Made by a program: the position numbers and the translations under genes. Below are positions 11,158-31,162 of a DNA stretch of 64,000 bases, piece by piece; the stretch's first letter is position 1; the number at the start of each line of letters is the position of its first letter. The notes beneath the pieces are model-generated. The model had not been told where the DNA came from. It saw only the letters and a program-made list of their open reading frames with translations, and made no database searches. Location of the stretch: assembly GCA_965116865.1 (NCBI GenBank), contig OZ220727.1, positions 2,372,798 to 2,436,797 of the forward strand, given 5' to 3'. The DNA is from Acidimicrobiales bacterium. GTDB lineage: Bacteria > Actinomycetota > Acidimicrobiia > Acidimicrobiales > Aldehydirespiratoraceae.

Positions 11158-11182
11158 GGTTCGGGGAGGCTTGCGCGGCGGG
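10786..11182. repeat. 72-bp x ~5.5 tandem array between the PP2C gene and pknB
   Basis: Unit: GGCATGGTTCGGGGAGGCTTGCGCGGCGGGCGAGCATCCCCGCCCCTCCCGGACGGATCGGCTGGTCGCAAC. Each unit has nested inverted repeats (GGGAGG/CCTCCC and GGCGGG/CCCGCC). Confidence 0.95.
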
Positions 11183-11227
11183 CCCGGCCGGCCGCGCTGC
11201 TGAGACCCCGGCCGGACGCCGCCTCTC

Positions 11228-13208: not shown

Positions 13209-15548
13209 TTAAGGCGGCGGCAAGTTGGATGAGTACGGGCGAGACTTAATGTACTCTTCCATGAACGCCAGGTCGAGTTCGTTGCCATCAGTGAGAGGCA
13301 GTCGAATACTCGATCGCCGCATGCGTGTTTGGCTGCATTTCCTGCCGTAGTTGTATCGGTACTGTTCTAGGTTGATTATCGTTACAAGAAACATAGCAAC
13401 ATAGGAGTTCATTGAGAACTTCGGAATCAGCTTCTCAACGTGATCGGATGCGGTAAACGGCTGCGCTTGGTAGCTACAATACCCTGCAACCGCACTGTCA
13501 ACCACAAGGACACCACCCCGTTCCGTGTATGTGCCGAAGAAGTGCCTTACTCCGTTATTCGTCGCCTGAGTCGTTACGAATGGGAATCTCAACTGAGTGC
13601 CATAGTCTCCTGCGTGTAGCTCTCTCAGTGGTGTCGTCTGACTGCCAGTTATCTTAAAGATATCGGCAATCTTAACTTCTTTCCACGTTGATACGTCAAG
13701 AGCGAGTGTGGCTTCACAGCTGGACGCATCGGAAACGTTTGGAACAATTCTGTTCGCAAACAAGTACGCCGAGTATTCGTGTAGCGTATTGTCAAACGGA
13801 TTATCAGTAAGCAGGCCGTAATCTGTCTCCATGTATGCCTCAGCGGCCCATTCATCTGCGCTAGTGAGTACCCGATTGACGCTCAACCCTGGAACAGTCC
13901 GTCGATTGAAGTAGAGGTCAAGCCACTGGCACCTGATTTCGTCCCACTTGCCGAAGGCATCGAAGCGTCCACCAACCTTACGTTTGACGAATCCATCGTC
14001 CTTGTAGTAGCCCAAAAAAACTTCTTGGGTCATTGGATGTTCGCGCCATGCTTCGAACACCATGATGCATGAAACAACGCCGACATCTGAGTTGAAGAAG
14101 AGTTCGTCAGGCATGGACAGAACTGCCCTAAGTGTATGCTTCTCCATCAATTGACGCTTCAGGTCACCAATTGTGCCCTTGACGGCAAGAGCGCATTGCA
14201 TTGGCACGATGGCCACACAGATAGAACCTTGAGTTAGGCATTCCAAGTTGTTGAGCACGAACTGGAGCTCTTCGATGTCCTCCTTCTTGTCAGACTTGTA
14301 AGGAGGGTTCAACATGCCGACCGTGGGTCTGTGTTCCTTCATGCTGTTCATTACGTTAGAATCAAAGCAACTGCCTAGTTCAATATTGGACTTACCATCC
14401 TGATGAATGAGCATGTTTGATACCGCCAGTGGGTATATGTCTGATTGAATCTCAACACCGTACAGATGGTCACTCTTTATTGAGTTCTCTGTTGAGGTGG
14501 AGCCCTTAGCATCATCAATCATCCTCTTCATTGCACTGATCAAAAAGCCGCCAGTCCCGGCACAGCTATCGTAGACCACGGATTCGGATCTGACCTGAGC
14601 AAGTTCGGCAAACAGCTCAGTAATGTGAGGAGGTGTCAAGACGATCCCTAGGCCCTTGTCGCTGTTTGCATGTCGTAGGAACTCGACATATATAGTACCG
14701 AGCACGTCTCGATACTGGTGTGTCTTAACGAAAGAGTTCACTTCACGATCAATCTCAGATACGATGCGTCGCAACTCATGCTGTGATCTGATTAGTTCAG
14801 TTTCAAGAGGCAAGAAACCGAACTTCTGTTCGAGCACGTTCAGACGCTTGCTGCCAATGTTTGCTGACTTGAGTTCAGTGATAACTGAATCCACGATGGA
14901 CTTAGCCAGCTGCGTTGAGTCTGTCTCGGACTGGTATGACTTTCGGAAGGCTCTTCGCTCTAGTGCAATCATCACAGCGCTTATCAATAGAGAGCGATTC
15001 TTCTCGGAGACCTTGTTCTTGTGTAGATCGATGTTCAATTGTCGAATGAACTTTTGAAGAGAGTGAAAGTCCTGTCTATACTTGATGGGGTCGTTACGGT
15101 ATCCTTGCAAGTAGTCGTCAACGGGTAGCAGAGCGTGCCCGAAGGCGTCCCTTGGTTCACGCTCTGACCTGAACTTGAAGAAATGAGATATTCTAGCTGA
15201 CTTGGCATCAGTTCCGCTCACCGCTAGGGCCAAGACATCGTAGTTCTCGGAGAGGTAGGACGCATAGTGTAGCGTGCCATCGACGGCATAGTCTCTCGGT
15301 CTAGCGCGAGTGGGACTCTCGTGTTTAGTGATGTCCTCCTTGCATTCGATGACAATCAACAGTTCGGCTTCCTCATTGAAGCGAACGATGAATTCAGGTT
15401 GACCATGTCCTAGACCTGATTTGGAAGCTTGACTTAGCAGTTTTCGAATTCTGGGTTCTGCAGACTGCTGCTCTTCGAGCACTATCTCATCGCGGAACTG
15501 TTTGAAGTGCTCTCGAACGATGTCTTCAGTGGTTCTTTCATTTGCCAT
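13209..15548 (-). CDS. Single-chain restriction-modification protein: PD-(D/E)xK-like N-domain, gamma-class N6-adenine DNA methyltransferase and one HsdS-type target-recognition domain (Type IIG/IIB-like)
   Basis: N-terminal domain GQPEFIVRF...LLIVIECKED. Methyltransferase motif I is VYDSCAGTGGFLISA and motif IV is MLNPPYKSD. C-terminal TRD: WKEVKIADIFKITGSQTTP...RSSIRLPL. The gene is visibly AT-rich (about mid-40s % GC by eye). Confidence 0.8.
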   Translation of the reverse strand: MANERTTEDIVREHFKQFRDEIVLEEQQSAEPRIRKLLSQASKSGLGHGQPEFIVRFNEEAELLIVIECKEDITKHESPTRARPRDYAVDGTLHYASYLSENYDVLALAVSGTDAKSARISHFFKFRSEREPRDAFGHALLPVDDYLQGYRNDPIKYRQDFHSLQKFIRQLNIDLHKNKVSEKNRSLLISAVMIALERRAFRKSYQSETDSTQLAKSIVDSVITELKSANIGSKRLNVLEQKFGFLPLETELIRSQHELRRIVSEIDREVNSFVKTHQYRDVLGTIYVEFLRHANSDKGLGIVLTPPHITELFAELAQVRSESVVYDSCAGTGGFLISAMKRMIDDAKGSTSTENSIKSDHLYGVEIQSDIYPLAVSNMLIHQDGKSNIELGSCFDSNVMNSMKEHRPTVGMLNPPYKSDKKEDIEELQFVLNNLECLTQGSICVAIVPMQCALAVKGTIGDLKRQLMEKHTLRAVLSMPDELFFNSDVGVVSCIMVFEAWREHPMTQEVFLGYYKDDGFVKRKVGGRFDAFGKWDEIRCQWLDLYFNRRTVPGLSVNRVLTSADEWAAEAYMETDYGLLTDNPFDNTLHEYSAYLFANRIVPNVSDASSCEATLALDVSTWKEVKIADIFKITGSQTTPLRELHAGDYGTQLRFPFVTTQATNNGVRHFFGTYTERGGVLVVDSAVAGYCSYQAQPFTASDHVEKLIPKFSMNSYVAMFLVTIINLEQYRYNYGRKCSQTRMRRSSIRLPLTDGNELDLAFMEEYIKSRPYSSNLPPP

Positions 15549-15952: not shown

Positions 15953-16171
15953 CGACGCACAAACTCTAAGTCCCGACACGCAAACCGAAAGCCGCGACGC
16001 TGACCGAGCGCGCCAGCCGCCACACCGACGCACAAACTCTAAGTCCCGACACGCAAACCGAAAGCCGCGACGCTGACCGAGCGCGCCGGCCGCCACACCG
16101 ACGCACAAACTCTAAGTCCCGACACGCAAACCGAAAGCCGCGACGCTGACCGAGCGCGCCAGCCGCCACAC
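15953..16171. repeat. 73-bp x 3 tandem repeat
   Basis: CGACGCACAAACTCTAAGTCCCGACACGCAAACCGAAAGCCGCGACGCTGACCGAGCGCGCCAGCCGCCACAC is repeated with a 73-bp period. Confidence 0.95.
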
Positions 16172-16289
16172 CCTTGCCGTCGCGCTGCCCGACGGCTACG
16201 ACGCCGCCAGCACCGCGGCCGCGGCCATCGCCGCTCCCGCCCGCCAACCGGCGCACCCGGCCAAGACCCCGACCCGGGACCAGGACCGC

Positions 16290-16581: not shown

Positions 16582-18177
16582 TCACCCCGACCCGGCCATC
16601 CCCCATCCGTCGCGGCAGGGACAACGTCCGTCCCCCTGTCCGCGCTTGCTCTCGGCCAAGCGGCCGGTCACGGCCTCCACCGCGGGCACCAGGGCCTCGT
16701 CGATGAGCATCTGCTCGGCCGCCGCAAACTCGGGAGACAGCCAGCGGTCAGGCCCGGGCCCGGGCACCCGGGTCCGCAGCAGGGTCACGGCCGCCCCAGT
16801 TCCGGCTGCGGGCTGCAACGGAGCCCGCAGCTCGATGCCGCGGGCGGCCGCAACCCATTCGACGGCCAGGATGCGGCGCAGGTTGTCGATCACCCGGCGC
16901 AGCTTGCGGGCCGCGCCCCAGCCCATCGAGACGTGGTCCTCCTGCATGGCCGAGGTGGGAAGCGAGTCCACCGACGCCGGCGCGGCCAGGCGCCGGTTCT
17001 CAGCGCAGAGAGCCGCAGCCGTGTACTGGCCGATCATCAGGCCGCTGTCCACACCCGGATCGTCGGCCAGGAACGGGGGCAGCCCGTGTGAGCGGTTGTG
17101 GTCGAGCATCCGGTCGGTGCGACGCTCGGCGACCGCGCCGACCTCGGACGCGGCGATGGCCAGGTAGTCTGCCGCCAGCGCGACCGGCGCCCCGTGGAAG
17201 TTGCCGCACGACTCCACCCGGCCGCCGGGCAGCACCATCGGGTTGTCGATGGCGGAGGCCAGCTCCCGGTCGGCCACCGCGGCCACGAAATCGAGAGTGT
17301 CGCGGGCTGCACCGTGGACTTGGGGGGTGCATCTGACGGAGTAGGCGTCCTGCACCCGGTCGTCACCGGTGCGATGGCTGGCGACAATCGGGGAGTCCGC
17401 CAGCACGGCCCGGAGATTGGCCGCACTGGCCTGCTGCCCGGGATGGGGCCGCAACGCCACCAGGTCGGCGGCGAATGCCCGGTCGGTGGCCAGCAGAGCC
17501 TCCACGCTGCAGCCGGCCACGATGTCGGCCACGGCCAGCAGGTGGGCCAGATCGTGCACAGCCAGGCAGAGCATCCCGAGGATGCCGTCGGTGCCGTTGG
17601 TGAGGGCCAAGCCCTCCTTGTCAGCCAGCTCTACCGGCTCTAGCCCGGCCTGCTCGAGGGCTCCGGCAGCGTCCGCGACTCCTTGGTCGGACTGCACCTC
17701 GCCCTCGCCCGTCATCACCAGAGCGACGTGGGCCAGCGGCGCGAGGTCTCCGCTGGCACCGAGCGAGCCGTGCTCGGGCACGGCGGGGACCACACCCGCA
17801 TTGATCAGCCGCACCAGGGCCTCTGCCACTTCGGGCCGCGCTCCGGAAACACCGAAGGCGAGCGTCCGGGCCCGCAGCATCATCATGGCCCGCACCACCT
17901 CCGCCTCGACCGCCGGCCCCATCCCGGCGGCATGCGAGCGGATCAACGACTGCTGGAGCGCAGCCCGCCGGGCCGCGGGGATGACAGTGTTGGCCAGCGC
18001 GCCGAAGCCGGTGGAGACACCGTAGGCGGGATCCCCGTCCGCCAGTGCCTCGACGATGCGGCGGGCCGCGGCCATGCGAGCGACGGCGTCGGCGCTGAGC
18101 CGGAGCTCCTCGCAACGGCGAGCGACCGCGACGACATCGGACACGGTGACCCCGGCGCCGTCGAGCTGCACCGTCAT
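16582..18177 (-). CDS. hutH: Histidine ammonia-lyase
   Basis: Starts at MTVQLDG (ATG 18177). Contains GVSTGFGALA and the MIO-forming GSLGASGDLAPLAH motif. The N-terminal extension of the 854-aa ORF is rejected. Confidence 0.9.
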   Translation of the reverse strand: MTVQLDGAGVTVSDVVAVARRCEELRLSADAVARMAAARRIVEALADGDPAYGVSTGFGALANTVIPAARRAALQQSLIRSHAAGMGPAVEAEVVRAMMMLRARTLAFGVSGARPEVAEALVRLINAGVVPAVPEHGSLGASGDLAPLAHVALVMTGEGEVQSDQGVADAAGALEQAGLEPVELADKEGLALTNGTDGILGMLCLAVHDLAHLLAVADIVAGCSVEALLATDRAFAADLVALRPHPGQQASAANLRAVLADSPIVASHRTGDDRVQDAYSVRCTPQVHGAARDTLDFVAAVADRELASAIDNPMVLPGGRVESCGNFHGAPVALAADYLAIAASEVGAVAERRTDRMLDHNRSHGLPPFLADDPGVDSGLMIGQYTAAALCAENRRLAAPASVDSLPTSAMQEDHVSMGWGAARKLRRVIDNLRRILAVEWVAAARGIELRAPLQPAAGTGAAVTLLRTRVPGPGPDRWLSPEFAAAEQMLIDEALVPAVEAVTGRLAESKRGQGDGRCPCRDGWGMAGSG

Positions 18178-18668
18178 ACGCGCACAGCCCCCGACAGTCG
18201 ATCGCCGACCGGCTCGCACCGCTCGAACCCGCCGAGCACAGTCACGCGAGCACAGCCACCAGCGCAACGACCGCGCGCGACACAACCACCACAGAACCGA
18301 GCTGCCACCGAACACCCCGCCCAAAGCCCACCAGCGCAACAACCGCGCGCGACACAACCACCACAGAACCGAGCTGCCACCGAACACCCCGCCCAAGACC
18401 CAGCGGCGCAACAACCGCGCGCGACACAACCACCACAGAACCGAGCTGCCACCGAACACCCCGCCCAAAGCCCACCAGCGCAACAACCGCGCGCGACACA
18501 ACCACCACAGAACCGAGCTGCCACCGAACACCCCGCCCAAGACCCAGCGGCGCAACAACCGCGCGCGACACAACCACCACAGAACCGAGCTGCCACCGAA
18601 CACCCCGCCCAAGACCCAGCGGCGCAACAACCGCGCGCGACACAACCACCACAGAACCGAGCTGTCAC
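18174..18668 (-). other. 164-codon bridge ORF spanning the array, bounded by GTGA (iclR stop) and ATGA (hutH start)
   Basis: The GTG at 18668-18666 overlaps the iclR TGA at 18667-18665. Its TGA at 18176-18174 overlaps the hutH ATG at 18177-18175. It reads ARFCGGCVARGCCAAGSWAGCSVA repeated. Confidence 0.3.
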
Positions 18669-18712
18669 CGAACACCCCGCCCAAGACCCAGCGGCGCAAC
18701 GACCGCGCGCGA
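18256..18712. repeat. 72-bp x ~6.3 tandem array between iclR and hutH (two alternating unit variants)
   Basis: Unit: CACCAGCGCAACAACCGCGCGCGACACAACCACCACAGAACCGAGCTGCCACCGAACACCCCGCCCAAAGCC. Variants carry AAAGCCCACCAGCGC or AAGACCCAGCGGCGC. Confidence 0.95.
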
Positions 18713-19417
18713 CGCGGCCGTTGCGGCCTCGACCACTGCTGTGGCCGCTCTGTCGAGGCGCCTGCCGACCAGGCGGTCGGCCGGACCCAGCACCGACATG
18801 GCCGCGACGGGACCAGCCGATCCGTACACCGGCGCGCAGACCGCGGTGACGTCGGGCTCGATGCTGCCGGTGTTGAGGACATACGGGGGCCGGTCGCCGG
18901 CCGCCTGTCCGGCGGAGTGCAGCGCCTCGCCCACAGCGGTGCCGTGGATCGGCACGGAGCGGCCGACCCAGCCGACATGGCGAATGGCCCGGCGGCCCTC
19001 GACCGTGGCGATGTAGACCGCCTCGTCGCCGTCGCGCACAGCCAGGTAGGCGGACTCCTCTGTGAGCTCGACAATCCGTTCGAGCTCGGGCTGGGCCGCC
19101 GCCAGGAGCCTGGCGTAGGGGCCCGATTGCAACGAGGCCAAGGCAATGCGCACGAAGGAGGCGCCTACGGAGTACGTCCCGCCGTCGTTCTTCACCAGGT
19201 AGCCGCCGTCGGTCAGCACCCGCAGGTGGCGCAGGGCTGTGCTCGTCGGCATGCCGGTTCGGACCGCTGCCGCGGTCAGGCTGAGCGCGCCCTCGGTGAC
19301 GACGGTGTCCAAGAGCGCCAGCACACGCTCAGCAGAGCGCGACTTGTGCAGCGATGACTCGGGCGTAGCACGGCTGACAGCCGTAGACATTTCAGATTCT
19401 GAAATGATATGCCGCAT
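18665..19417 (-). CDS. IclR-family transcriptional regulator (divergent from hutU)
   Basis: wHTH LSLTAAAVRTGMPTSTALRHLRVLTDGGYLV followed by an IclR effector domain. The C-terminal ~15 aa are encoded by the first repeat unit. Confidence 0.85.
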   Translation of the reverse strand: MRHIISESEMSTAVSRATPESSLHKSRSAERVLALLDTVVTEGALSLTAAAVRTGMPTSTALRHLRVLTDGGYLVKNDGGTYSVGASFVRIALASLQSGPYARLLAAAQPELERIVELTEESAYLAVRDGDEAVYIATVEGRRAIRHVGWVGRSVPIHGTAVGEALHSAGQAAGDRPPYVLNTGSIEPDVTAVCAPVYGSAGPVAAMSVLGPADRLVGRRLDRAATAVVEAATAASRAVVAPLGLGRGVR

Positions 19418-19486
19418 ATTGGCAGAATATGTCGTCGGCGGCTACAGTGCAACCCGCTACCGAGCCGCTGGCACTGAAGGTCCGCG

Positions 19487-21214
19487 ATGCCCGCCAGATC
19501 ACAGCCCAGAGGGAACGCTCCCGCCCGCGGCGCGAGATCTCCGACCCGGGGCGCTCCAACCAGGGGCGTGAGGTCTCCCACCGGCACCGCGCTGACGTGC
19601 CGCGGCTGGCCTCAGGAAGCTGCCTTCCGGATGCTTCAGAACAACCTCGACCCCGACGTGGCCGAACGTCCCGACGATCTCGTGGTGTACGGCGGGACGG
19701 GACGGGCCGCCAGATCCTGGGACGCCTACCATGCCATGATCCGGGCCCTGACCGACCTCGCCGGCGACGAGACCCTGCTGGTGCAGTCGGGCAAGCCCGT
19801 CGGCGTGCTGCAAACCCACGAGTGGGCGCCCAGGGTCCTCATCGCCAACTCCAATCTCGTGGGCGAGTGGGCCACATGGGACGAGTTCCGGCGACTCGAA
19901 CAGCTCGGGTTGACCATGTTCGGGCAGATGACCGCGGGCTCGTGGATCTACATCGGCACGCAGGGAATCTTGCAGGGCACCTACGAGTGCTTCGCGGCCA
20001 TCGCCCGCAAGCGCTTCGGCGGATCGCTGGCGGGAACCCTCACCGTGACCGCCGGCCTGGGCGGCATGGGCGGCGCCCAGCCCCTGGCCATCACCATGAA
20101 CGACGGAGTCGCCTTGTGCATCGAGGTCGACGGCGAGCGGGCCGCCCGGCGGGTGGAGACCCGCTATCTCGACGTGGTCGCCGACGGCTACGCCGATGCA
20201 CTGCGCCGCTGCGAGGAGGCACGCTCCGCCCGTCGGCCGCTGTCGGTGGGGCTGGTCGGCAATGCGGCCGACGTAGTGCCGCGCCTGCTGGCCGACGGCG
20301 TGTCCGCCGACATCGTCACCGACCAGACCTCCGCCCACGACCCGTTGACCTACGTTCCCAACGACCTGCCGCCCGAAGCCGCCGACGAGCTGCGCCGGAA
20401 CCAGCCCGAGGAGCTCATCCGCCGGTCCCGTGTCGCCATGGCCGCCCATGTGGAGGCCATGGTCGGCTTCCTCGACGCGGGCGCCGAGGTGTTCGACTAC
20501 GGCAACAGCCTGCGAGCCGAGGCCCTCCTGGGGGGCTGCGAGCGGGCCTTCGACTATCCGGGCTTCCTGCCCGCCTACATCCGGCCGCTGTTCTGCGAGG
20601 GCAAGGGGCCGTTCCGATGGGTGGCGCTGTCGGGCGATCCGGCCGACATCGCGGCCACCGACCGGGCCGTGCTCGAGGAGTTCCCCCACGACGACGGCCT
20701 CAGGCGCTGGATCACCCTGGCCGCCGAGCGGGTCGAGTTTCAGGGCCTGCCCGCCCGGATCTGTTGGCTCGGATACGGGGAACGTCACCGACTGGGACTG
20801 AAATTCAACGAGATGGTCCGCTCCGGCGAATTGACCGCACCCGTAGTCATCGGGCGCGACCACCTCGACTCGGGCTCGGTGGCCTCGCCCTACCGTGAGA
20901 CCGAGGACATGCTCGACGGCAGCGACGCCATCGCCGACTGGCCCCTGCTCAACGCGCTGGTGAACACGTCGTCGGGAGCGTCGTGGGTGAGCATCCACCA
21001 CGGCGGCGGAGTGGGCATCGGCCGGTCGATCCACGCCGGGCAGGTGATCGTGGCCGACGGGACCGGCCTGGCGGCGCAGAAGCTGGAGCGGGTGCTGCTC
21101 AACGACCCGGCCACCGGCGTGATGCGCCACGCCGACGCCGGCTACGACCGGGCCTGGGAAGTGGCAGCCGAGCAAGGCGTGAACATACCGACAGACACAG
21201 CAGCCCCGCCATGA
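19487..21214 (+). CDS. hutU: Urocanate hydratase
   Basis: [43 protein letters not shown] and [22 protein letters not shown]. Confidence 0.9.
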
Positions 21215-21384
21215 CCGCCGAACACAGCAAGGCGAGCTCCTGGAACAGAGACACACACTGCGACGAGCACACGAACAACCCCGCCATGACCGCCGAACAC
21301 AGCGTTACCGGGCCCGTGGCCTCCTCGCCCAGGTGGCAGGATCCCCGGCCGAGCCGGATGTCCGCCCGGCCGTCGGCGCCATGA
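21211..21384 (+). other. 57-codon bridge ORF between hutU and def, containing a 75-bp duplication
   Basis: The ATG at 21211 overlaps the hutU TGA (21212-21214). The TGA at 21382-21384 overlaps the def ATG at 21381. CCCCGCCATGACCGCCGAACACAGC occurs at 21204 and 21279. Confidence 0.3.
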
Positions 21385-21950
21385 CGGTCCGCGACATACT
21401 CGCCATCGGCCATCCGGCGCTGCGGGTCCCGGCCGCGGCCGTGCCTCCGAGCGAGATCCGCAGCCGGCGGGTGCAGGACGTCGTCGACGACCTCATCGAC
21501 ACGATGCGCCACGCCGACGGAGCAGGGCTGGCCGCCAACCAGATCGGCGAGACAGCCCGGATCGTCGTCATCGAAGTGAACGACAACCCCCGCTACCCCT
21601 ACAAACCGCCGATCCCACTCACCGTCGCCATAAACCCCGAACTGGAGGCGCTCGACGACACGACCGTGATCATCAACGAAGGCTGCCTGTCGGTGCCGCT
21701 GCGAGGCGACGTGGCCCGCTCGGTGAACCTCCGGGTCCGCTACTTCGACCGTGACGGCGCCGAGCACCGCCTCGAGGCCCACGGCCTGGCCGCGGGCACC
21801 TGGCAGCACGAGTGCGACCACCTCGACGGCGTGCTGATCACCGACCGGGCCGACCCGGCGACCCTCGCCACTTGGGACGAGTTCGAGCGGCACCACCGAA
21901 ACGCATTCATCGAGCGCATCTCGAGGTTCGTGCAACTCGTCGGATCATGA
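21381..21950 (+). CDS. def: Peptide deformylase-family metallohydrolase embedded in the hut operon
   Basis: All three PDF motifs are present: GAGLAANQIG, EGCLSVP and QHECDHLDG. The protein is 189 aa, taking the MTVRD start. Confidence 0.85.
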   Translation: MTVRDILAIGHPALRVPAAAVPPSEIRSRRVQDVVDDLIDTMRHADGAGLAANQIGETARIVVIEVNDNPRYPYKPPIPLTVAINPELEALDDTTVIINEGCLSVPLRGDVARSVNLRVRYFDRDGAEHRLEAHGLAAGTWQHECDHLDGVLITDRADPATLATWDEFERHHRNAFIERISRFVQLVGS

Positions 21951-22450
21951 CGGCCCGGCACGTCGACATGTCCCACGGCCGACAATCTGTCAAGAAACCA
22001 CCGCACAGGCAGAAAAACCTGCAGAAGTTCAACAAATGCCCGTCCGGACGGCCTCCAACGACCGGGGCGGCACCAACGTTGACGTTCGGCGCCAGCGAAT
22101 TCAACAAATGCCCGTCCGGACGGCCTCCAACGACCGGGGCGGCACCAACGTTGACGTTCGGCGCCAGCGAATTCAACAAATGCCCGTCCGGACGGCCTCC
22201 AACGACCGGGGCGGCACCAACGTTGACGTTCGGCGCCAGCGAATTCAACAAATGCCCGTCCGGACGGCCTCCAACGACCGGGGCGGCACCAACGTTGACG
22301 TTCGGCGCCAGCGAATTCAACAAATGCCCGTCCGGACGGCCTCCAACGACCGGGGCGGCACCAACGTTGACGTTCGGCGCCAGCGAATTCAACAAATGCC
22401 TGTCCGGACGGCCTCCAACGACCCAGGACACCGGGGAGCCGCGAGCATGA
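21947..22450 (+). other. 167-codon bridge ORF through the array, with ATGA overlaps at both ends
   Basis: The ATG at 21947 overlaps the def TGA (21948-21950). The TGA at 22448-22450 overlaps the hutF ATG at 22447. Both junctions share ATGACGGCCCG (MTAR). Confidence 0.3.
22028..22422. repeat. 72-bp x ~5.5 tandem array between def and hutF
   Basis: Unit: TTCAACAAATGCCCGTCCGGACGGCCTCCAACGACCGGGGCGGCACCAACGTTGACGTTCGGCGCCAGCGAA. Each unit has a perfect 12-bp palindrome (CCGTCCGGACGG) plus AACGTT and GAATTC. Confidence 0.95.
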
Positions 22451-23847
22451 CGGCCCGCTACTGGTGCGAGCGGGCGTGGCTGGGAGGTCCCCGAGCCGAC
22501 ACCGGCGTGGTGATCGAAGTGGAAGGCGACCGCATCGGCCGAGTGGCTGCCGGGGTGCGCACCCGGCCCGAGGACGCCGAGCCTTTGGCAGGCCTCACTC
22601 TGCCGGCGCTGGCCAACGTCCACAGCCACGCCTTCCACCGGGCCCTGCGAGGCCGGACCCACCACGGGCGGGGCAACTTCTGGACTTGGCGCGAACTCAT
22701 GTACCGGGCGGCGTCCCGGCTCGACCCCGACCGCTGCCACCGGCTGGCTCGGGCGGTGTTCGCGGAGATGGCGCTGGCCGGCATCGGAGTGGTCGGCGAG
22801 TTCCACTACGTCCACCACCGGCCCGCGGGCGACGCCTACGAAGATCCCAACGCTATGAGCGCCGCGCTGGTCGCCGCCGCCCGCGACGCCGGAATCCGTC
22901 TGACCCTGCTCAACGCTCTGTACCTGCACGCCGGCCTGGACGCCGTCTCATCCGGCGGTCACAGCCGGCGACGCTCCGACTCAACCCGCGGCTACAGCCC
23001 GCTGCGGCCCGAGCAGGCCCGCTTCAGCGACGGCAGCGCCGCACGATGGGCCGAGCGGGCCTCCGACCTGGAAGCTGCCGTGTCCGGCCCGGCGGTGAGG
23101 GTGGGTGCAGCGGTGCATTCGGTGCGGGCCGTCGATCCGGCCTCCATGAAGGTGGCAGCCGCCTGGGCCCGGGACCGGGACGCGCCGCTGCACTTCCACG
23201 CCTCCGAGCAGCCGGCCGAGAACGAGCAGTGCCTCGCCGTGCACGGCCGAACCCCGGTAGAGGTCATCGCGGAGACCGGAGGGCTGGGACCCTCCACGAC
23301 GCTGGTGCATGCCACCCACGTCACCGAGCAGGACCGGGCGCTGATCGGCGAGACCGGCACCGGCTGCTGCCTGTGCCCGACCACCGAGCACGACCTCGCC
23401 GACGGCGTGGGCCCGGCCGAGGCGCTGGCCCGGACCGGTGCCCGGCTTTGCGTGGGATCGGACTCGCACGCCGTCGTCGACCTCTTCGCAGAAGTCAGGA
23501 CGGTAGAGCTCGACCAGCGCGCCGCCACCGGCGACCGGGGCGTGTTCGGTGTGGAGGAGTTGGCCTCCATGGCCACCGCCGCCGGTTACCGGTCCTTGGG
23601 CTGGCCCGACGGCGGCGTCCTGGAGGTGGGCGCGCTGGCCGACTTCGCCACCGTCGGCCTCGACTCGGTACGCCTGGCCGGCATCGACGACGACAGCGCG
23701 CTGGCCGCGGTGATCTTCGCGGCGACCGCCGACGATGTGCGTCACCTGGTGGTGGGAGGGAGGACCGTCGTGAAGGAGGGACGGCACACTTCCGTCGATG
23801 CCGCCGCAGAGCTCGCCACAGCCATCGCGGAAATGACTGCACCATGA
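22447..23847 (+). CDS. hutF: Formimidoylglutamate deiminase
   Basis: LPALANVHSHAFHRALRGRTHHGRGNFWTWRELMYR and GVVGEFHYVHH; amidohydrolase fold. Starts at MTARYW. Confidence 0.85.
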   Translation: MTARYWCERAWLGGPRADTGVVIEVEGDRIGRVAAGVRTRPEDAEPLAGLTLPALANVHSHAFHRALRGRTHHGRGNFWTWRELMYRAASRLDPDRCHRLARAVFAEMALAGIGVVGEFHYVHHRPAGDAYEDPNAMSAALVAAARDAGIRLTLLNALYLHAGLDAVSSGGHSRRRSDSTRGYSPLRPEQARFSDGSAARWAERASDLEAAVSGPAVRVGAAVHSVRAVDPASMKVAAAWARDRDAPLHFHASEQPAENEQCLAVHGRTPVEVIAETGGLGPSTTLVHATHVTEQDRALIGETGTGCCLCPTTEHDLADGVGPAEALARTGARLCVGSDSHAVVDLFAEVRTVELDQRAATGDRGVFGVEELASMATAAGYRSLGWPDGGVLEVGALADFATVGLDSVRLAGIDDDSALAAVIFAATADDVRHLVVGGRTVVKEGRHTSVDAAAELATAIAEMTAP

Positions 23848-24287
23848 CACCCACGACCGCGCCAGCCGAGGGCCCGCCACAGCCATCACGGAAATGACTG
23901 CACCATGACACCCACGACCGCGCCAGCCGAGGGCCCGCCACAGCCATCACGGAAATGACTGCACCATGACACCCACGACCGCGCCAGCCGAGGGCCCGCC
24001 ACAGCCATCACGGAAATGACTGCACCATGACACCCACGACCGCGCCAGCCGAGGGCCCGCCACAGCCATCACGGAAATGACTGCACCATGACACCCACGA
24101 CCGCGCCAGCCGAGGGCCCGCCACAGCCATCGCGGAAATGACTGCACCATGACACCCACGACCGCGCCAGCCGAGGGCCCGCCACAGCCATCGCGGAAAT
24201 GACTGCACCATGACACCCACGACCGCGCCAGCCGAGGGCCCGCACCGACCATCGCGGAAATGACTGCACCATGACACCCACGACCGC
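23815..24287. repeat. 61-bp x ~7.75 tandem array between hutF and hutI; it copies the hutF 3' end and stop
   Basis: Unit: GCCACAGCCATCrCGGAAATGACTGCACCATGACACCCACGACCGCGCCAGCCGAGGGCCCGCC. Each unit carries two ATGA tetranucleotides. Confidence 0.95.
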
Positions 24288-24534
24288 CTCCCCGGACCGC
24301 CCGCAGGCAGGCATTCGCGTCCCGCGCCGGGATGGGATCGCTCCCGCTGCCGCCCGCTGCAACGACGGACTGCTAGTCAGGATCCGCGTAGCCGGACTCG
24401 TCAACGGGGTCGCTGCCGCTGCCGCCCGCTGCAACCACGGACTGCTCAGACCGCGGCTGTGGCCGCATGGACCGGACTCGCCCAGTTCCTCGGCCGGCCA
24501 CCTACGGGCAGCCTCGGAGGTCGCTGCATCGTGA
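24271..24534 (+). other. 87-codon bridge ORF from the last repeat unit to hutI
   Basis: It starts at the ATGA of the last unit. The TGA at 24532-24534 overlaps GTG 24531, the predicted hutI start (GTGA). Confidence 0.3.
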
Positions 24535-25715
24535 CGCTGGTGGTCGACAACATCTCCGAGCTGGTCACCAACGACCCCACGCTCGGGAAAGGGCCGCTCG
24601 GGATCGTCGATGACGCTTCGGTGGTGGTGGACGGCGGCGCCGTGGTGGCAGTGGGCCCGGCAGGCGCCGCCGCCGACGAGCGCCTCGACGCGGACGGACG
24701 CTGCGTGCTGCCCGGGTTCGTGGACTCCCACACCCATCTGGTCTTCGCGGGCGACCGGGCCGAGGAGTTCAGCCGCCGGATGGCGGGAGAGCCCTACGAC
24801 GGGGGCGGCATCCGCGTCACCACCGAAGCCACACGCACGGCCGGGCGGGCCGCGCTGGGAGCCTCGCTCGACGGGCGGCTGGCCGAGATGCACCGGGCCG
24901 GCACCACCACGGTGGAGATCAAGACAGGCTACGGGCTGTCGGTGGACTCCGAAGCCGAACTTGCGTCGCTGGCCGCCGAGGTCACTCCGGAGGCCACCTT
25001 CCTCGGCGCTCACCTCGTGCCCGGCGAGTACCAGGGGCGCACCGACGACTACGTCGAACTGGTGTGCGGGCCGATGCTCGACGCGGTCCGCGGCCATGTC
25101 CGCTGGATGGACGTGTTCTGCGAGACCGGCGCCTTCGACGCCGACCAGTCCCGAGCGGTGCTCGCCGCCGGCCACCAGGCTGGGCTGGGCCTGCGGCTCC
25201 ACGGCAACCAGCTCGGCCACGGACCGGGAGTGCAACTCGCCGTCGAGATGGGCTGCGCGTCGGTGGACCACTGCACCTATCTCTCAGACGCCGACATCGA
25301 GGCCTTGGCGGCCAGCGGCACGGTGGCCACGTTCCTGCCGGCCACCGACTTCTCGACCCGCCAGCCCTATCCCGACGCCCGACGGGCGATAGACGCCGGC
25401 GTGAGGGTGGCCATCGCCTCGAACTGCAACCCCGGGTCGAGCTACACGAGCTCGCTGTCGTTCTGCGTGGCGCTGGCCGTGCGCGACATGGGCATGACCA
25501 TCGACGAGGCGGTGGCTGCGGTCACCATCGGAGGCGCGGCCGCGCTTCGCCGCACCGACGTGGGCCGGGTCACGCCCGGCGGCGCGGCCCACATGACCGT
25601 CCTCGACGCCCCCAGCCGCCACCACCTCGCCTACCGGCCGGGCGTCCCGTTGATCTGGCGGACCCTGGGATCCGACTACCGGCTCCCGCCCGCAGACGAC
25701 CAGGCTCAGGCATGA
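24531..25715 (+). CDS. hutI: Imidazolonepropionase
   Basis: [34 protein letters not shown]-like LHGNQLGH, and ASNCNPGSS. The GTG at 24531 is preferred over the ORF-track ATG at 24459. Confidence 0.85.
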
Positions 25716-26223: not shown

Positions 26224-26934
26224 TCAGGCGAAGGCGGCCAGCCACTGCTCGCGGCTGGTGGGCCGGAACACGTAGTTGCGCTCGCGGGTGACGCCCATGG
26301 TGGCCGACGACTCCACCGAGTAGCGGTGCCCCGGGTAGAGCACCGCGTCGTCAGGCACCCGGGCCAGACGGGTGGTGAGGCTCTCGTACATCTGGGCCGG
26401 GTCGGAGCCGGGCAGGTCCATGCGCCCGCATCCCTCGAGGAAGAGCGTGTCGCCGGCCACCAGCCGGCCGTCCACCAGGAAGCACTGGCTTCCCGGGGTG
26501 TGGCCCGGCGTGGCGATGAGCTCGATTTCGACCGCGCCCACCGTCACCACGTCCCCTGAGGCGTGGCTGACCAGGCAGTCGCCGTCCACGCCGGTCACTT
26601 TCTTGACGAGATCGGCTTCGGCGGCCTGCACGTGGATCGGTACCGACACCCGCTCCAGCAGCCGGCTGACACCCTCGATGGTGATGCCCATCATCTCGCC
26701 CCCCACGTGGTCGGGGTGGTAGTGGGTGGCCAGCACGCCGGTGCAGGCCATGCCGTCCGCCTCCAGCAGATCAACGAGCCCGCAGGTGTCGTAGGCCGGG
26801 TCGACGAGCACGGCCTGGCCGCTCCGGCGGTCGCCGATGGCGTACACGAAGTTCACCATCTGGCGGGCCAGCCCGTCGCCGGCCGCGAAGTCGCGCCCCG
26901 ACAGCAGCTGCCGGAAGTAGAGCCGGTCGTCCAC
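26224..26934 (-). CDS. MBL-fold metallo-hydrolase (glyoxalase II-like)
   Basis: ATHYHPDHVGG, TPGHTPGS, and CGRMDLPGSD. Confidence 0.85.
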   Translation of the reverse strand: MDDRLYFRQLLSGRDFAAGDGLARQMVNFVYAIGDRRSGQAVLVDPAYDTCGLVDLLEADGMACTGVLATHYHPDHVGGEMMGITIEGVSRLLERVSVPIHVQAAEADLVKKVTGVDGDCLVSHASGDVVTVGAVEIELIATPGHTPGSQCFLVDGRLVAGDTLFLEGCGRMDLPGSDPAQMYESLTTRLARVPDDAVLYPGHRYSVESSATMGVTRERNYVFRPTSREQWLAAFA

Positions 26935-27285: not shown

Positions 27286-28230
27286 GTGGGGCAACCCGAG
27301 AGGTCGTGCAGTCCGACCGTCGGATACTTGGGCCCGCCGGGGACGTTCACCGAGCAGGCCGTCTATTCCCAGCCCGACCTGGCCGCCATGAACCACCAGC
27401 CCATCGACTCGATCGTCGACGTGCTGCGGGCGGTCGGCAGCGGCGTCGTCGATCTGGGTCTGGTGGCCATCGAGAACATGATCGAGGGGTCGGTGACGGC
27501 CACCCTCGACGCGCTGGCCTTCGACACCGACCTGTTCATCCAGCGCGAGGTGATCATCGACGTCAACCTGAACCTGCTGGGCCCTCCGGGCATGGCGCTG
27601 GACTCGGTGGAGCGGGTCCGCTCCTATCCGGTGGCTCACGCCCAATGCCGCGAGTACCTGGCCGCCAACCTCCCCGGCGCGGTGTTCGAGGCGGCCAACT
27701 CGACCGCCGAAGCGGCCCGCAGCCTGACCGATTCGGGCGACCGCACCACCGCGGCCATCGCGCCTCTGCGCTCGGCGGAGGTGTACGGGCTGGACGTGCT
27801 GGCCGCCGGCATCGCCGACCGTGCCGACAACCAGACCCGCTTCGTGCTGGTCGGAGCCGACGTCATCGCCGTACCGACCGGCCACGACAAGACGAGCATG
27901 GTCGTCTACCAGCGCACCGACATGCCGGGCTCGCTGATCGGCATCCTGGGCGAGTTCGCGGCCCGGGCCATCAACCTGACCAGCCTCCAGAGCCGCCCCA
28001 CCAAGGCCGGCCTGGGCCAGTACTGTTTTCTGCTGGACTGCGAGGGCCACATCGCCGACGAGGTGGTGGCCGACGCGCTGCGCAACCTCAAAATGAAGAC
28101 CTCCCGGGTGAAGTTCCTCGGCTCCTACCCGTCGGCCTCCGCCGACCACCACGACCACGCAACGAACCAGGCGGAGGCACGCAAGGCGGCCGCCTGGATA
28201 GACGACCTCAGGGGCCGGATCCTCGTTTGA
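27286..28230 (+). CDS. pheA: Prephenate dehydratase with a C-terminal ACT domain
   Basis: VGYLGPPGTFTEQA, ENMIEGSV, TRFVLV, and the ACT block DMPGSLIGILGEFAARAINLTSLQSRP. Confidence 0.9.
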   Translation: MGQPERSCSPTVGYLGPPGTFTEQAVYSQPDLAAMNHQPIDSIVDVLRAVGSGVVDLGLVAIENMIEGSVTATLDALAFDTDLFIQREVIIDVNLNLLGPPGMALDSVERVRSYPVAHAQCREYLAANLPGAVFEAANSTAEAARSLTDSGDRTTAAIAPLRSAEVYGLDVLAAGIADRADNQTRFVLVGADVIAVPTGHDKTSMVVYQRTDMPGSLIGILGEFAARAINLTSLQSRPTKAGLGQYCFLLDCEGHIADEVVADALRNLKMKTSRVKFLGSYPSASADHHDHATNQAEARKAAAWIDDLRGRILV

Positions 28231-29089: not shown

Positions 29090-31162
29090 CCGTCGCTGAA
29101 TTGATCGGGGCACCTGGAGCGCCTCCGAGCGAGGCTTCGGGCCTTCCGCGCTGCCCTAGGAGGCTGGTGTTTTTCTCGGGTGGGGTTGGGTGTGTGTGGT
29201 AGAGTTGCAGGGATGTTGTTCGGTCTCGTGGGGAGGTTCGTGTCGTGACGGTGGGTGTGGAGCCGTGTCGGGTGGATCTGTTCAAGGGTTCGCATTTCGT
29301 GGGGGAGCGGCTGGCGGCGGATTCGATTTTTTCGGTGTTGGCGCGTGAGGGGCGGCGGTTGTTTCCCGACGGGATGTTCGATGATCTCTTTAGTTCGCGG
29401 GGGCGGCGCAGTGTGCCGCCGCGGGTGGTTGCTGTGGTGATGGTGCTGCAGCGCTGGTTCGGGTTGTCTGAGTGTGAGGCGGTGGCCGCGTTCGAGTTCG
29501 ACGCGCGTTGGCGTTATGCGTGCGGGTGCCTCGACGTGGACGGCGGCGGGTTCGACCACACGGTGCTGGTGGGGATGCGGGCGCGGCTCGCGGCGTCGCA
29601 GCGGCCGCGGCGGATCTTCGAAGCGGTGCTGGGCGCGGCCCGCGAGGCGGGGGCGTTGTCTCGGCGGCGGGTGCTGGACTCGGTGCCGGTCTATGACGCG
29701 GTCGCGACCCAAGACACTGTCACGATGCTGCACCGCGCCATCGGCGCGGTGCTCGCAGCCGGCGGGGGCGACGCCGGCGCGGGCTTGCGTGGCGACTATC
29801 GGCGCGGCAGCAGGCCGGTGTGCGACTGGGACGACCCCGGCGAGCGCTCGGAGTTGGTGGACGCGCTGGGCGCGGACGCCGCGGCGGTGCTCGCCGGGTT
29901 GGAGGGCCGCGAGCTCAGCGGGGCTCTCAGCGAGGCTGCGGAGTTGTTGGCCGCGGTCTGCGGGCAGGACCTCTGCGAGGACCCCGACGGGCGGTTCATG
30001 ATCGCGCGGCGCGTCGCCGCGGACCGGGTCATCTCCACGGTGGACCCCGACGCCCGCCACGGCCACAAATCCACCGCACGGCGCTTCGACGGCTACAAGG
30101 GCCACGCCGCGGTGGACCCCGACTCCGAACTCGTCACCGACACCGCGGTCACCCCCGCTGACACCGCCGACGCCCAACCCGCCCCCCAACTCATACACGA
30201 CCTCCTCAACACCGCCGACACCAACACCAACACCGCCGACACCGACACCGCCGACACCGACACCGCCGACACCGACACCGCCGACACCGACACCGCCGAC
30301 ACCGACACCGCCGACACCGACGCCGACACCGCCGATACCGACACCGACACCGACACCGCCGACACCGCCGACACCGCCGACGCCGACACCGCCGACACCG
30401 CCGACACCGCCGACGGCGGCGGTGTGGTCGAGGAGTTCGAGGGCCGGCCGACGGTCTATGGCGACAGCGCGTACGGCAGCGGAGAGTTCCAAGGGCTGCT
30501 CGAGCGCAGCCGCATAAACTCGAGGTGCCGCACCCAGCCGGCGCGCGCTCCGGGGGGCCGCTTCGCCAAGGACCGCTTCGACGTCGATCTGCCCAACGGC
30601 ACAGTCACCTGCCCCGCGGGGGTCTGCGTCGCTGTCCGCTTCGGCCGCGACGGCTCGGGCGCGGCCCGCTTCGGGCCGGCGTGCGCGAGCTGCGAACTGC
30701 GCGACCGCTGCACCAGCGCAGCCGGCGGAAGGACTGTGCGCGTCGGACCCGACGAGGCCGTGCTCGCCGCGGCCCGCGAACGCCAACAAGACCCACAATG
30801 GCGCCGCGACTACCGCGCCGTGCGCCCCAAAGTCGAACGCAAGCTCGCGCACCTCGTGCACCGCAAAAACGGCGGCCGCCACGCCCGGGTGCGCGGCCGG
30901 CCCAAAGTCGACGCCGACTTCAACCTGCTCGCCGCAGCCGCCAACATCGCGCGCCTCGGCATGCTCGGACTGCGCTCCACACCAACAGGATGGACCCTCG
31001 ACTGACCCCGCCAAAGCCCCAACCCGCCCCCGACACGACCAACCAGCCGCCCCCGACACGACCAACCCTCGCCCAACCCGCCGACCCCGGCCACCACCCA
31101 CCACAACAGCCCACCGAACACCAATTTGGCACCAGCCACCTAGCAATTTGGACGACACACCA
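29090..31162 (+). mobile_element. IS1182/IS5-like insertion sequence (~2.07 kb)
   Basis: Flanked by the duplicated ACTAGAGG(T) at 29081-29089 and 31162-31170. Imperfect inverted repeats (IRs) are GGTCCGTCGCTGAATTG and CAATTTGGACGACACACC. Confidence 0.7.
29245..31005 (+). CDS. IS1182-family DDE transposase with an internal Asp/Thr/Ala tandem-repeat insert
   Basis: DUF772-type N-terminus (SVPPRVVAVVMVLQRWFGLSECEAV), then GYKGHAAVDPDSELV, VYGDSAYGSGEF and KVDADFNLLAAAANIARLG. The repeat lies at 30205-30415 (DTADTDTAD...). Confidence 0.85.
   Translation: MTVGVEPCRVDLFKGSHFVGERLAADSIFSVLAREGRRLFPDGMFDDLFSSRGRRSVPPRVVAVVMVLQRWFGLSECEAVAAFEFDARWRYACGCLDVDGGGFDHTVLVGMRARLAASQRPRRIFEAVLGAAREAGALSRRRVLDSVPVYDAVATQDTVTMLHRAIGAVLAAGGGDAGAGLRGDYRRGSRPVCDWDDPGERSELVDALGADAAAVLAGLEGRELSGALSEAAELLAAVCGQDLCEDPDGRFMIARRVAADRVISTVDPDARHGHKSTARRFDGYKGHAAVDPDSELVTDTAVTPADTADAQPAPQLIHDLLNTADTNTNTADTDTADTDTADTDTADTDTADTDTADTDADTADTDTDTDTADTADTADADTADTADTADGGGVVEEFEGRPTVYGDSAYGSGEFQGLLERSRINSRCRTQPARAPGGRFAKDRFDVDLPNGTVTCPAGVCVAVRFGRDGSGAARFGPACASCELRDRCTSAAGGRTVRVGPDEAVLAAARERQQDPQWRRDYRAVRPKVERKLAHLVHRKNGGRHARVRGRPKVDADFNLLAAAANIARLGMLGLRSTPTGWTLD

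Follow-up and report, generated by a model that had tools for sequence, protein, structure and literature searches.

A gene for a peptide deformylase (PDF) homolog, lodged in a histidine utilization (hut) cluster of an Acidimicrobiales bacterium, probably encodes the N-formyl-L-glutamate deformylase of that pathway. Comparative sequence evidence points to a metal-dependent deformylase of the PDF fold recruited to histidine catabolism, converting N-formyl-L-glutamate to L-glutamate plus formate. An earlier note on this DNA had proposed this role in place of that of housekeeping Def, and the proposal draws support from synteny in 24 of 24 relatives, from linkage that persists through operon rearrangements, and from recurrent protein fusions. 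We also consider it fairly likely that PDFs of this subtype, designated AGT for its residue signature, are widespread, unrecognized metabolic deformylases: the first clear case of the PDF fold working on a small-molecule intermediate rather than on nascent proteins. They would complete the HutF branch by catalyzing its final, missing step, in Acidimicrobiia and other bacteria as well as in stramenopile protists, where they would do so as fusions to HutF. A literature search on PDF with N-formylglutamate, hutF, histidine degradation, or fusion returned no description of such a role.

In the proposed scheme, HutH, HutU, and HutI would carry histidine to N-formimino-L-glutamate, HutF would deiminate this to N-formyl-L-glutamate, and the PDF-like enzyme would hydrolyze the formamide bond to release L-glutamate and formate (EC 3.5.1.68), a step that usually belongs to HutG. 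Its gene would belong to a hutU-PDF-hutF-hutI transcript that starts in the hutU promoter region, presumably under control of the divergent IclR-type regulator. HutG, the FGase family enzyme of the Pseudomonas-type five-step Hut pathway, is a requirement of any pathway that uses HutF, and its gene accompanies hutF, hutI, hutU, and hutH, as the PDF gene does here. The predicted reaction and the pathway logic are the same, but the two protein families are unrelated, so the case would be one of non-orthologous gene displacement if the proposed function is right.

The hut cluster and the absence of hutG from the window

The window, the whole stretch of 64,000 nucleotides that was analyzed, contains the features collected in Table 1. 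The genes of the HutF-type branch, hutH, hutU, hutI, and hutF, are all present and intact in the cluster, each product passing an NCBIfam equivalog cutoff, and the PDF gene lies between hutU and hutF as the earlier note had read it. That note had also reported hutG to be absent from the window, and the absence holds: a Pfam scan of about 49 window ORFs, each either GC3-supported or long, found no HutG/FGase, no arginase-type formiminoglutamase, and no M20 hydrolase. Nor are FGase, arginase-type, or M20 genes found within 8 kb to either side of the locus in three relatives (L001-L003).

Table 1. Features of the hut cluster and its surroundings, in window coordinates.
Feature	Position	Strand	Remarks
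hutH, histidine ammonia-lyase	16582-18177	-	TIGR01225 647.5 bits, cutoff 539
Tandem array, 72-bp x6.3, at hutH/iclR junction	18262-18713		TRF score 827, 96% matches
IclR-family regulator, divergent from hutU	18665-19417	-	Pfam HTH_IclR + IclR_C
Sigma-70-like promoter match upstream of hutU	19419-19448	+	TTGGCA-18-TACAGT, 9/12 positions; consensus match only
hutU, urocanate hydratase	19487-21214	+	TIGR01228 889 bits, cutoff 375
Bridging ORF, 57 codons	21211-21384	+	ATG overlaps hutU stop; TGA overlaps PDF start
PDF-family gene, AGT subtype	21381 (ATG)-21950 (TGA)	+	189 aa; proposed N-formyl-L-glutamate deformylase
Bridging ORF, 167 codons, running through 500-bp insertion	21947-22450	+	
Tandem array, 72-bp x5.5, near-perfect, inside 500-bp insertion	22028-22423		TRF score 785, 99% matches
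hutF, formimidoylglutamate deiminase	22447-23847	+	NF006681 578.6 bits (cutoff 362); TIGR02022 446 (cutoff 413)
Tandem array, 61-bp x7.8	23814-24287		TRF score 897; unit includes hutF-stop/hutI-start ATGA junction
hutI, imidazolonepropionase	24531-25715	+	TIGR01224 347 bits, cutoff 298

Previously, a single protein had been put forward as an alternative to HutG for deformylating N-formylglutamate: a COG0624/M20 protein of a different fold. It, too, is a hydrolase that accompanies HutF, in its case in genomes that lack HutG, and it is likewise found fused to HutF; in Streptomyces the M20 gene presumably takes the place that the PDF gene has here, flanked by hutU and hutF. For the Streptomyces candidate (S. 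avermitilis), no deformylase activity was reported (PMC3223725, Table 3, case 20). The N-formylglutamate step is therefore still without a gene in such organisms; by the same token, the failed assay means that position in a hut operon does not by itself prove deformylase activity.

Family assignment and closest solved relative

The window protein is a member of the peptide deformylase superfamily by profile, motifs, and alpha+beta fold. PF01327 is matched with E=9.5e-43 (145.9 bits, cutoff 22.8) and is the sole Pfam family matched at E<=1e-3, the HutG (FGase) family giving no match at that threshold. NCBIfam models NF001159 and TIGR00079 score 136.6 bits (cutoff 125) and 111.9 bits (cutoff 103.95), and it is because these equivalog cutoffs are passed that public records name such proteins peptide deformylase. 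The three motifs from which the earlier note had deduced an intact enzyme are all located in the ORF, as G47-A-G-L-A-A-N-Q54, E100-G-C-L-S104, and H143-E-C-D-H147. They preserve the complete catalytic set, with metal ligands Cys102, His143, and His147 plus Glu144 and Gln54, and they are invariant in the relatives (119 proteins of clade A, 118 of clade B, and 11 fusions). An AF2 model of the protein has a pLDDT of 96.2, and the top matches in a PDB fold search with that model are all PDFs.

The best of these matches, 1sv2 (TM 0.86/0.95, rmsd 1.1 A, 40% identity in the fold alignment), belongs to the PDF of Leptospira interrogans (LiPDF; 1SV2, 1Y6H, 1SZZ), the closest solved relative, which is matched in sequence at 120 bits. 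We take LiPDF to be an active peptide deformylase. All three catalytic motifs recur in it, HECDH among them, and so does the enlarged CD-loop insertion (N-x-R-Y-P), an enlargement seen also in Arabidopsis PDF1A (1ZXZ) and in Burkholderia PDFs (5KOB, 5HGW). The enlarged loop opens and closes over the active site (PMC3101196). LiPDF differs, however, in being a translation enzyme without hut linkage, in having Val, Ile, and Val at the positions of Ala48, Gly139, and Thr140 of the hut-linked proteins, in having Gly-Thr for Tyr74-Lys75 and Trp for the Asn99 of clades A and B, and in lacking a C-terminal T-W-x-x-F...F segment conserved in hut-linked proteins. E. coli Def, a type 1B PDF, is 41% identical over 161 residues (tblastn), and its ligands Cys90, His132, and His136, together with Glu133 and Gln50, are all conserved in the window protein; its C-terminal region does not align, it lacks the CD-loop insertion, and it carries Ile44, Ile128, and Cys129 in place of Ala, Gly, and Thr. 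Two observations count against a metabolic role: every PDF catalytic residue is kept in a protein that passes the NCBIfam cutoff, and the closest solved relative was deposited as a peptide deformylase.

A residue signature at positions aligned to the S1' pocket

We take the hydrophobic S1' pocket that receives the methionine side chain in E. coli PDF to be formed by Ile44, Ile86, Leu125, Ile128, and Cys129. Partial support for these pocket residues is found in PMC4964514. The window residues aligned to the five are Ala48, Ile98, Leu136, Gly139, and Thr140. The S1' pocket was one of two places where the earlier note had suggested looking for a distinction from housekeeping PDFs, and by alignment the positions of Ile44, Ile128, and Cys129 are indeed substituted; in E. 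coli numbering, the window protein appears to be without the hydrophobic pocket of the housekeeping type. Across hut-linked groups, the three positions are Ala in 85-100%, Gly in 98-100%, and Thr in 98-100%, and Tyr74-Lys75 of the CD loop is conserved in 97-100%, the counts being taken over the 119 clade-A proteins, 118 clade-B proteins, and 11 fusions and set against 56 other PDF representatives. The latter show Val/Ala/Ile at position 44, Arg/Val/Ala at 128, Val/Ile at 129, and Asp/Ala at the CD-loop position. A pocket widened and made more polar by Ala48, Gly139, Thr140, and Asn99 might take the side chain and carboxylates of glutamate rather than a methionyl peptide, and Tyr74-Lys75, on the mobile CD loop, may help to accommodate them. 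We infer both the substrate and this role of the pocket from aligned residues.

The other place, phylogeny, does not set AGT-type PDFs apart as one clade. Neighbor-joining (NJ) bootstrap recovers the fusion clade in 55 of 60 replicates, but the exact bipartition for the whole AGT group in only 3 of 60, or 17 of 60 when up to three intruders are allowed. Given this weak NJ support, the argument rests on the residue signature and not on the tree. Among the hits listed in the search of representatives, scores run down from 200 to 105 bits without a break. A Thiohalobacter protein (L028, 45% identity) considered as a possible AGT-type member was rejected, being an ordinary LiPDF-like "ARV" PDF.

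Linkage and fusion to HutF

All 24 Acidimicrobiia relatives (62-87% identity) carry the PDF gene with hutU on one side and hutF on the other, the set being made up of three close relatives and 21 species representatives from a genome collection (62-83% identity). For 15 of 23 related loci, the PDF stop directly overlaps the hutF start by 4 nt (ATGA, GTGA, or TTGA). Relatives at about 50% identity show other arrangements: the order gntR-hutU-hutF-hutI-PDF-hutH in four loci (L042, L033-35), and a hutF-hutI-PDF module with 4-nt overlaps and TonB-receptor neighbors in genomes of 5-6.3 Mb (L045-47). Linkage of PDF to hut genes thus outlasts both operon rearrangement and change of regulator, with three architectures and two regulator types observed. 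An apparently split PDF gene at one locus (L021) was considered as a pseudogene and rejected, since the break is a scaffold gap of Ns.

Single-chain fusions of 640-736 residues, with PDF at the N-terminus and HutF at the C-terminus, make up 16 or more clusters at 90% identity. One of them, P0135, scores 377 bits to NF006681 and 130 bits to NF001159. Some are eukaryotic (Paraphysomonas transcriptome, EukProt), while others lie on contigs with eukaryote-type neighbors, namely EF-hand, ankyrin/LRR, Oscp1, and Na/Ca exchanger genes; most eukaryotic fusions are missing a long N-terminal presequence. Fusion counts include clean examples only (P0135, P0271-P0284). Three apparent long "fusions" (P0133, P0142, and P0157) were set aside because their Arg/Ala-rich, out-of-frame stretches mark them as frameshifted calls of high-GC genes. 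Oomycetes (Phytophthora, Pythium, Lagenidium) carry M20-HutF fusions, which, by analogy with PDF-HutF, suggest that fusion of HutF with a partnering hydrolase is a recurrent event. They also suggest that the 2011 report of an inactive M20 protein may have been a false negative.

Other substrates and other roles

Not every AGT-type member is found with hut genes. Those of L022, L026, and L043/44 have no adjoining hut genes in the available flanks of up to 10 kb; one member outside a hut operon adjoins genes for NAD-formate dehydrogenase and formate-THF ligase, neighbors that fit a formate-releasing catabolic enzyme, and another adjoins an M24 aminopeptidase gene. Such members suggest that the subfamily may have a broader or different substrate, and the signature residues, common to hut-linked and non-hut proteins, do not separate the two. 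In six Acidimicrobiia operons, a gene for a PhyH dioxygenase sits directly upstream of the PDF gene with a 4-nt overlap. It is possible, then, if unlikely, that the PDF-like enzyme has some other substrate, in the histidine pathway or close to it, or that it is a general N-formyl-amino-acid deformylase for which N-formylglutamate is one substrate among others. Another N-formyl or N-formimino amino acid and the formylated product of a PhyH-type dioxygenase are candidates. The PhyH gene, however, is missing from the window and from most related loci, and HutF, whose product is N-formylglutamate, is alone in being a constant, overlapping, or fused partner.

A dual role, in which the organism's only peptide deformylase also deformylates N-formylglutamate, seems to us quite improbable. 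The intact catalytic motifs and the passing NCBIfam score agree with it, as does a tblastn search of the window and some 0.6 Mb of related loci with E. coli and M. tuberculosis Def as queries, which turned up no further PDF. But every species would then have an essential translation enzyme encoded in the middle of an operon, under a catabolic promoter and regulator, with the residues aligned to the hydrophobic Ile44, Ile128, and Cys129 replaced. Eukaryotic cytosolic translation, moreover, does not use fMet, which leaves the eukaryotic PDF-HutF fusions, mostly without a long presequence, unable to serve it.

That an ordinary housekeeping peptide deformylase has come to lie in the hut cluster by chance, as its canonical fold and motifs and its public annotation might suggest, is highly improbable, since 24 of 24 linkage, overlap with hutF, three architectures, two regulator types, and eukaryotic fusion to HutF are unexpected for a passenger, and since fmt, with which E. 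coli def is co-transcribed, was seen beside the PDF gene in none of about 40 contexts. The observation on fmt draws on the loci with gene tables and on the scanned neighbors of L022 and L026; the other loci of the genome-collection set were compared with Hut proteins only.

Consequences for annotation and pathway reconstruction

If the AGT-type proteins are N-formylglutamate deformylases, a pathway hole is closed in organisms that use HutF without HutG, for which no N-formylglutamate deformylase has been assigned. The PDF fold, an antibiotic target, is regarded as devoted to co-translational N-terminal processing. A metabolic branch of it would alter how def paralogs in genomes are read, would bear on the off-target spectrum of actinonin-type inhibitors, and would account for a eukaryotic PDF domain with no obvious tie to organellar translation. 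The name peptide deformylase would be wrong for thousands of database entries. An annotation rule that combines the residue signature with hutF linkage could be used, in contrast to pipelines that label by the equivalog cutoff of TIGR00079.

Gene junctions and repeats in the window

The earlier note had described the PDF gene as overlap-coupled into the operon. The ATGA overlaps do exist at both ends of the ORF, but in this strain they couple the gene only by way of two bridging ORFs, not straight to hutU and hutF: the hutU-PDF junction is split by a 75-bp duplication and the PDF-hutF junction by a 500-bp insertion with a 72-bp array. The duplicated segment, which comes from around the hutU stop (21201-21228 and 21276-21303), is contained in the 57-codon ORF, which was not found in relatives, where hutU-PDF spacers measure 16-60 nt. 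Direct repeats GA[T/G]CATGACGGCCCG at 21943-21957 and 22443-22457 bound the insertion; the 72-bp unit of its array has no further copy in the window. For its start codon the 167-codon ORF uses what was ancestrally the hutF ATG, which overlaps the PDF stop; its end overlaps the hutF ATG now in use.

Two starts in Table 1 differ from those of the listed ORFs. For hutH, the listed ORF (16582-19146) is over-extended and the true ATG is at 18177; for hutI, listed from 24459, the GTG at 24531 is the likely start. The iclR gene is found at the same position in 18 related loci.

Gene content of the hut cluster

The peptide deformylase (PDF)-family protein encoded between hutU and hutF is probably an N-formyl-L-glutamate deformylase standing in for HutG, a role for which the comparative-genomic evidence is convergent and strong. 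HutF produces N-formyl-L-glutamate, and the PDF-like enzyme would hydrolyze it to glutamate and formate in place of the unrelated HutG, by way of metal-activated water, as PDFs employ on N-formyl peptides.

The cluster described in the earlier note is borne out, since hutH, hutU, hutI and hutF all score above NCBIfam equivalog cutoffs. The intervening protein, which that note called catalytically intact, matches Pfam model PF01327 (E=9.5e-43), exceeds the cutoffs of the NCBIfam "peptide deformylase" models NF001159 (136.6 bits vs 125) and TIGR00079 (111.9 vs 103.95), and contains all three quoted motifs, GAGLAANQ, EGCLS and HECDH. A Pfam scan of ~49 ORFs of the window found no FGase/HutG, as that note had claimed, and no arginase-type formiminoglutamase or M20 hydrolase.

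Coordinates of features in the window and in related genomic loci (L numbers)
Feature	Sequence	Coordinates	Strand	Remarks
hutH	window	16582-18177	-	start refined
IclR-family regulator	window	18665-19417	-	
hutU	window	19487-21214	+	
Bridging ORF, predicted	window	21211-21384	+	57 aa; starts on hutU stop, ends on PDF start
PDF-family ORF	window	21381-21950	+	189 aa; ATG to TGA
Bridging ORF, predicted	window	21947-22450	+	167 aa; starts on PDF stop, ends on present hutF start
hutF	window	22447-23847	+	
hutI	window	24531-25715	+	start refined
Metallo-beta-lactamase-fold gene	window	26224-26934	-	
Prephenate dehydratase	window	27286-28230		
MTTB-family methyltransferase and DAO/GCV_T genes	window	58851-60401, 60591-63263	-, -	
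Tandem arrays	window	10785-11183, 12220-12379, 15953-16172, 18262-18713, 22028-22423, 23814-24287, 33631-33778, 53371-53590		
Low-GC island and transposase genes; region rich in mobile elements	window	13209-15548, 29245-31005, 35341-36039, 42803-48845		
FAD-dependent oxidoreductase	L001	11143-12606		485 aa, PF01266
FAD-dependent oxidoreductase	L002	11127-12584		485 aa, PF01266
MTTB-family gene	L002	5772-7313		
PhyH gene	L010	9171-10004		
PhyH gene	L011	2415-3236		
PhyH gene	L017	9071-10000		
PhyH gene	L018	8610-9428		
PhyH gene	L019	9207-10004		
PhyH gene	L020	8770-9675		
AMP_N/Peptidase_M24 and PDF genes	L022	8615-10576		
P0438 locus	L043/L044	4149-9615		

Linkage to hut genes among close relatives

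Searching with the window protein returned more than 120 protein clusters at 66-100% identity, every one 177-194 residues in length, and for the three looked up (79, 69 and 66% identity) the arrangement is in every case hutH-(iclR)-hutU-(x)-PDF-hutF-hutI. A scan of a genome collection, taking one genome per species, gave 26 loci. In all 21 of those from Acidimicrobiia or Actinomycetes (62-83% identity), hutU lies upstream of the PDF gene and hutF downstream, so that with the three looked-up relatives the flanking pair is found in 24 of 24 cases; the strand of hutH varies. No hut genes occur in the available flanks of the five proteobacterial matches (45-55% identity), and one of these, L028, considered as a hut-type PDF, was rejected as an ordinary PDF resembling that of Leptospira interrogans (LiPDF).

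The operon admits additional genes. In six Acidimicrobiia hut operons, hutU and the PDF gene are separated by a gene for a PhyH-family Fe/2OG dioxygenase, the PhyH stop overlapping the PDF start in most of them; L020 has a glyoxalase-fold gene between the PhyH and PDF genes. In L002 an MTTB-family gene and an unknown gene are inserted between hutU and the PDF gene. An FAD-dependent oxidoreductase gene directly follows hutI in L001 and L002 and is absent at that place from the window, whose hutI is followed by a metallo-beta-lactamase-fold gene and then a prephenate dehydratase gene.

Fold and residue signature

The AlphaFold model (pLDDT 96.2, from an 84-sequence alignment) predicts a canonical PDF fold. 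Its best PDB match, which is also the best by sequence, is LiPDF (TM 0.86/0.95, rmsd 1.1 A, 40% identity), an enzyme whose enlarged CD loop is mobile, with open and closed forms (PMC3101196).

Columns were compared between the hut-linked groups (119 close relatives of the window protein, or clade A; 118 members of the clade of cluster representative P0125, or clade B; and 11 PDF-HutF fusions) and 56 other PDF representatives. Catalytic residues are invariant throughout. At positions aligned to E. coli Ile44, Ile128 and Cys129, the hut-linked groups have Ala (85-100%), Gly (98-100%) and Thr (98-100%), where other PDFs have Val/Ala/Ile, Arg/Val/Ala and Val/Ile, respectively. The position of E. 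coli Glu87 is Asn in clades A and B and mostly Trp in other PDFs, and the CD loop (window Tyr74-Lys75) reads Tyr-Lys in 97-100% of proteins of the hut-linked groups and Asp/Ala and others elsewhere. A C-terminal T-W-x-x-F...F segment is conserved in groups with hut-linked members. Positions 44, 128 and 129 line the S1' methionine pocket of E. coli PDF, a pocket that the earlier note proposed to compare with housekeeping PDFs. From these residues we infer a wider and more polar S1' pocket, and a CD-loop Lys and Tyr that may bind the carboxylates of N-formylglutamate. Reported active-site contacts include Ile44, Leu125, Cys129 and Arg97 (PMC4964514).

Fusions to HutF

In cluster representative P0135 (659 residues), PDF (1-195) and HutF (211-657) form a clean fusion. 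A search with P0135 identified at least 16 clusters of such fusions, 640-736 residues in length and 55-70% identical to it. The fusions form the sole robust clade in neighbor-joining bootstrap analysis (55 of 60 replicates), whereas the whole group carrying the Ala-Gly-Thr and Tyr-Lys signature (AGT-type) is recovered exactly in 3 of 60. Several of the fusions are eukaryotic, among them EukProt entries, one of which is from the chrysophyte Paraphysomonas. Contigs encoding P0271 and P0280, with GC of 35-48%, carry eukaryote-type neighbors: EF-hand, ankyrin/LRR, Oscp1, an Na/Ca exchanger and a 1541-residue ABC transporter. Cytosolic translation in eukaryotes is initiated without formyl-methionine, and most fusions start directly at the PDF N-terminus; a PDF domain joined to HutF is therefore best explained if it acts on what HutF makes.

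Oomycetes (Phytophthora, Pythium, Lagenidium, Globisporangium) encode proteins of 827-861 residues that join Peptidase_M20 to HutF (P0291, P0303, P0327, P0340, P0346, P0381, P0385 and P0387). Taken with the PDF-HutF proteins, these show HutF repeatedly fusing with a hydrolase, and they suggest a fresh look at the M20 protein proposed as an "alternative N-formylglutamate deformylase," for which a 2011 report found no activity.

Distant relatives and alternative roles

Exhaustive searching of representatives gave scores continuous from 200 to 105 bits, grading into other PDFs. P0125 (50% identity) occurs on short contigs in the order hutF-hutI-PDF-hutH, and P0390, 87% identical to it, on a 70-kb contig as gntR-hutU-hutF-hutI-PDF-hutH, where the genes are ordered differently and the regulator is of the HutC type. 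P0412, which shares 52% identity with the window protein, belongs to a hutF-hutI-PDF module with 4-nt overlaps, on contigs of 5-6.3 Mb with TonB-dependent receptors among the neighbors; HutF and HutI there score above equivalog cutoffs.

Some members without hut linkage carry the identical signature, which favors a different or broader N-formyl substrate, an alternative we consider unlikely; several non-hut contexts lie on contigs too short to judge. AGT-type P0438, from an Acidimicrobiia MAG, lacks hut neighbors, and its gene is adjacent to and divergent from genes for molybdopterin NAD-dependent formate dehydrogenase subunits, fdhD and formate-THF ligase, a context that suits a formate-releasing enzyme. 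A Peptidase_M24 gene lies 4 kb from the PDF gene in this locus (L043/L044). In L022, a "delta proteobacterium" MAG, the AGT-type PDF gene comes after an AMP_N/Peptidase_M24 (aminopeptidase P-like) gene.

The window protein is a PDF superfamily member by profile, motifs and fold. It departs from housekeeping Def in two features, the hydrophobic S1' residues (by alignment) and the genomic context. That it might serve also as the sole Def of the organism seems quite improbable, although tblastn detected no second PDF within the window; that it is a housekeeping passenger and nothing else is very improbable. N-formylglutamate deformylation remains the preferred reading. Though outside the HutG/FGase family, the protein is proposed to fill the place of HutG in the pathway.

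In the general view, the PDF fold is given over to the processing of nascent chains. What would be new is the pairing of a known fold with a known reaction. No description of a PDF homolog in the Hut pathway was found in the literature searched, and public names are "peptide deformylase" for these proteins and "formimidoylglutamate deiminase" for the fusions. The closest earlier proposal is the SEED "alternative N-formylglutamate deformylase" (COG0624/M20) of Streptomyces hut clusters, a protein reported to be without deformylase activity (PMC3223725, Table 3). With the present proposal, a gap that has long existed in the HutF branch can be tested directly.

Unusual PDF architectures among the representatives (P0265, P0163, P0204, P0223, P0258, P0259) include one 590-residue fusion of PDF to ankyrin repeats and several proteins of ~335 residues in which two stretches match PDF, as tandem domains.

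Gene junctions, tandem arrays and mobile elements

The PDF gene had been described as overlap-coupled into the operon. ATGA stop/start overlaps are indeed present at both of its ends, but the partners are two bridging ORFs rather than hutU and hutF. Within the shorter, the hutU-stop region has undergone a 75-bp duplication. The longer crosses a 500-bp insertion that includes a tandem array (72 bp, 5.5 copies); on either side of the insertion stands the ancestral PDF-stop/hutF-start junction, as a direct repeat of 13-15 nt. Among relatives, 15 of 23 loci have a direct overlap of the PDF stop with the hutF start. Because the duplications and insertion created ORFs with ATGA at both ends, the coupling chain hutU-ORF-PDF-ORF-hutF is formally preserved.

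The window contains eight such arrays, near-perfect (96-99%), each built from 2.4-7.8 copies of its own unit, with a period between 52 and 73 bp. In the hut cluster and its surroundings they sit at gene junctions, and within the operon the ATGA junctions themselves are duplicated; where the hut operon has arrays, the genes of relatives overlap tightly, by 4 nt. The arrays could stem from slippage at the junctions, from a mobile process or from an artifact of long-read assembly.

The closest protein relatives of the window are named Candidatus Poriferisodalis and Acidimicrobiia, and its GC is ~65-70% outside a single low-GC (~51%) island that contains an N6-methylase/specificity-subunit fusion gene. 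The region is also rich in mobile elements, its many transposases comprising four IS630-like DDE_3, one of the Mutator family, IS4/5-like and DDE_Tnp_1_6. The window also encodes an MTTB-family methyltransferase and a DAO/GCV_T protein resembling dimethylglycine or sarcosine dehydrogenase.
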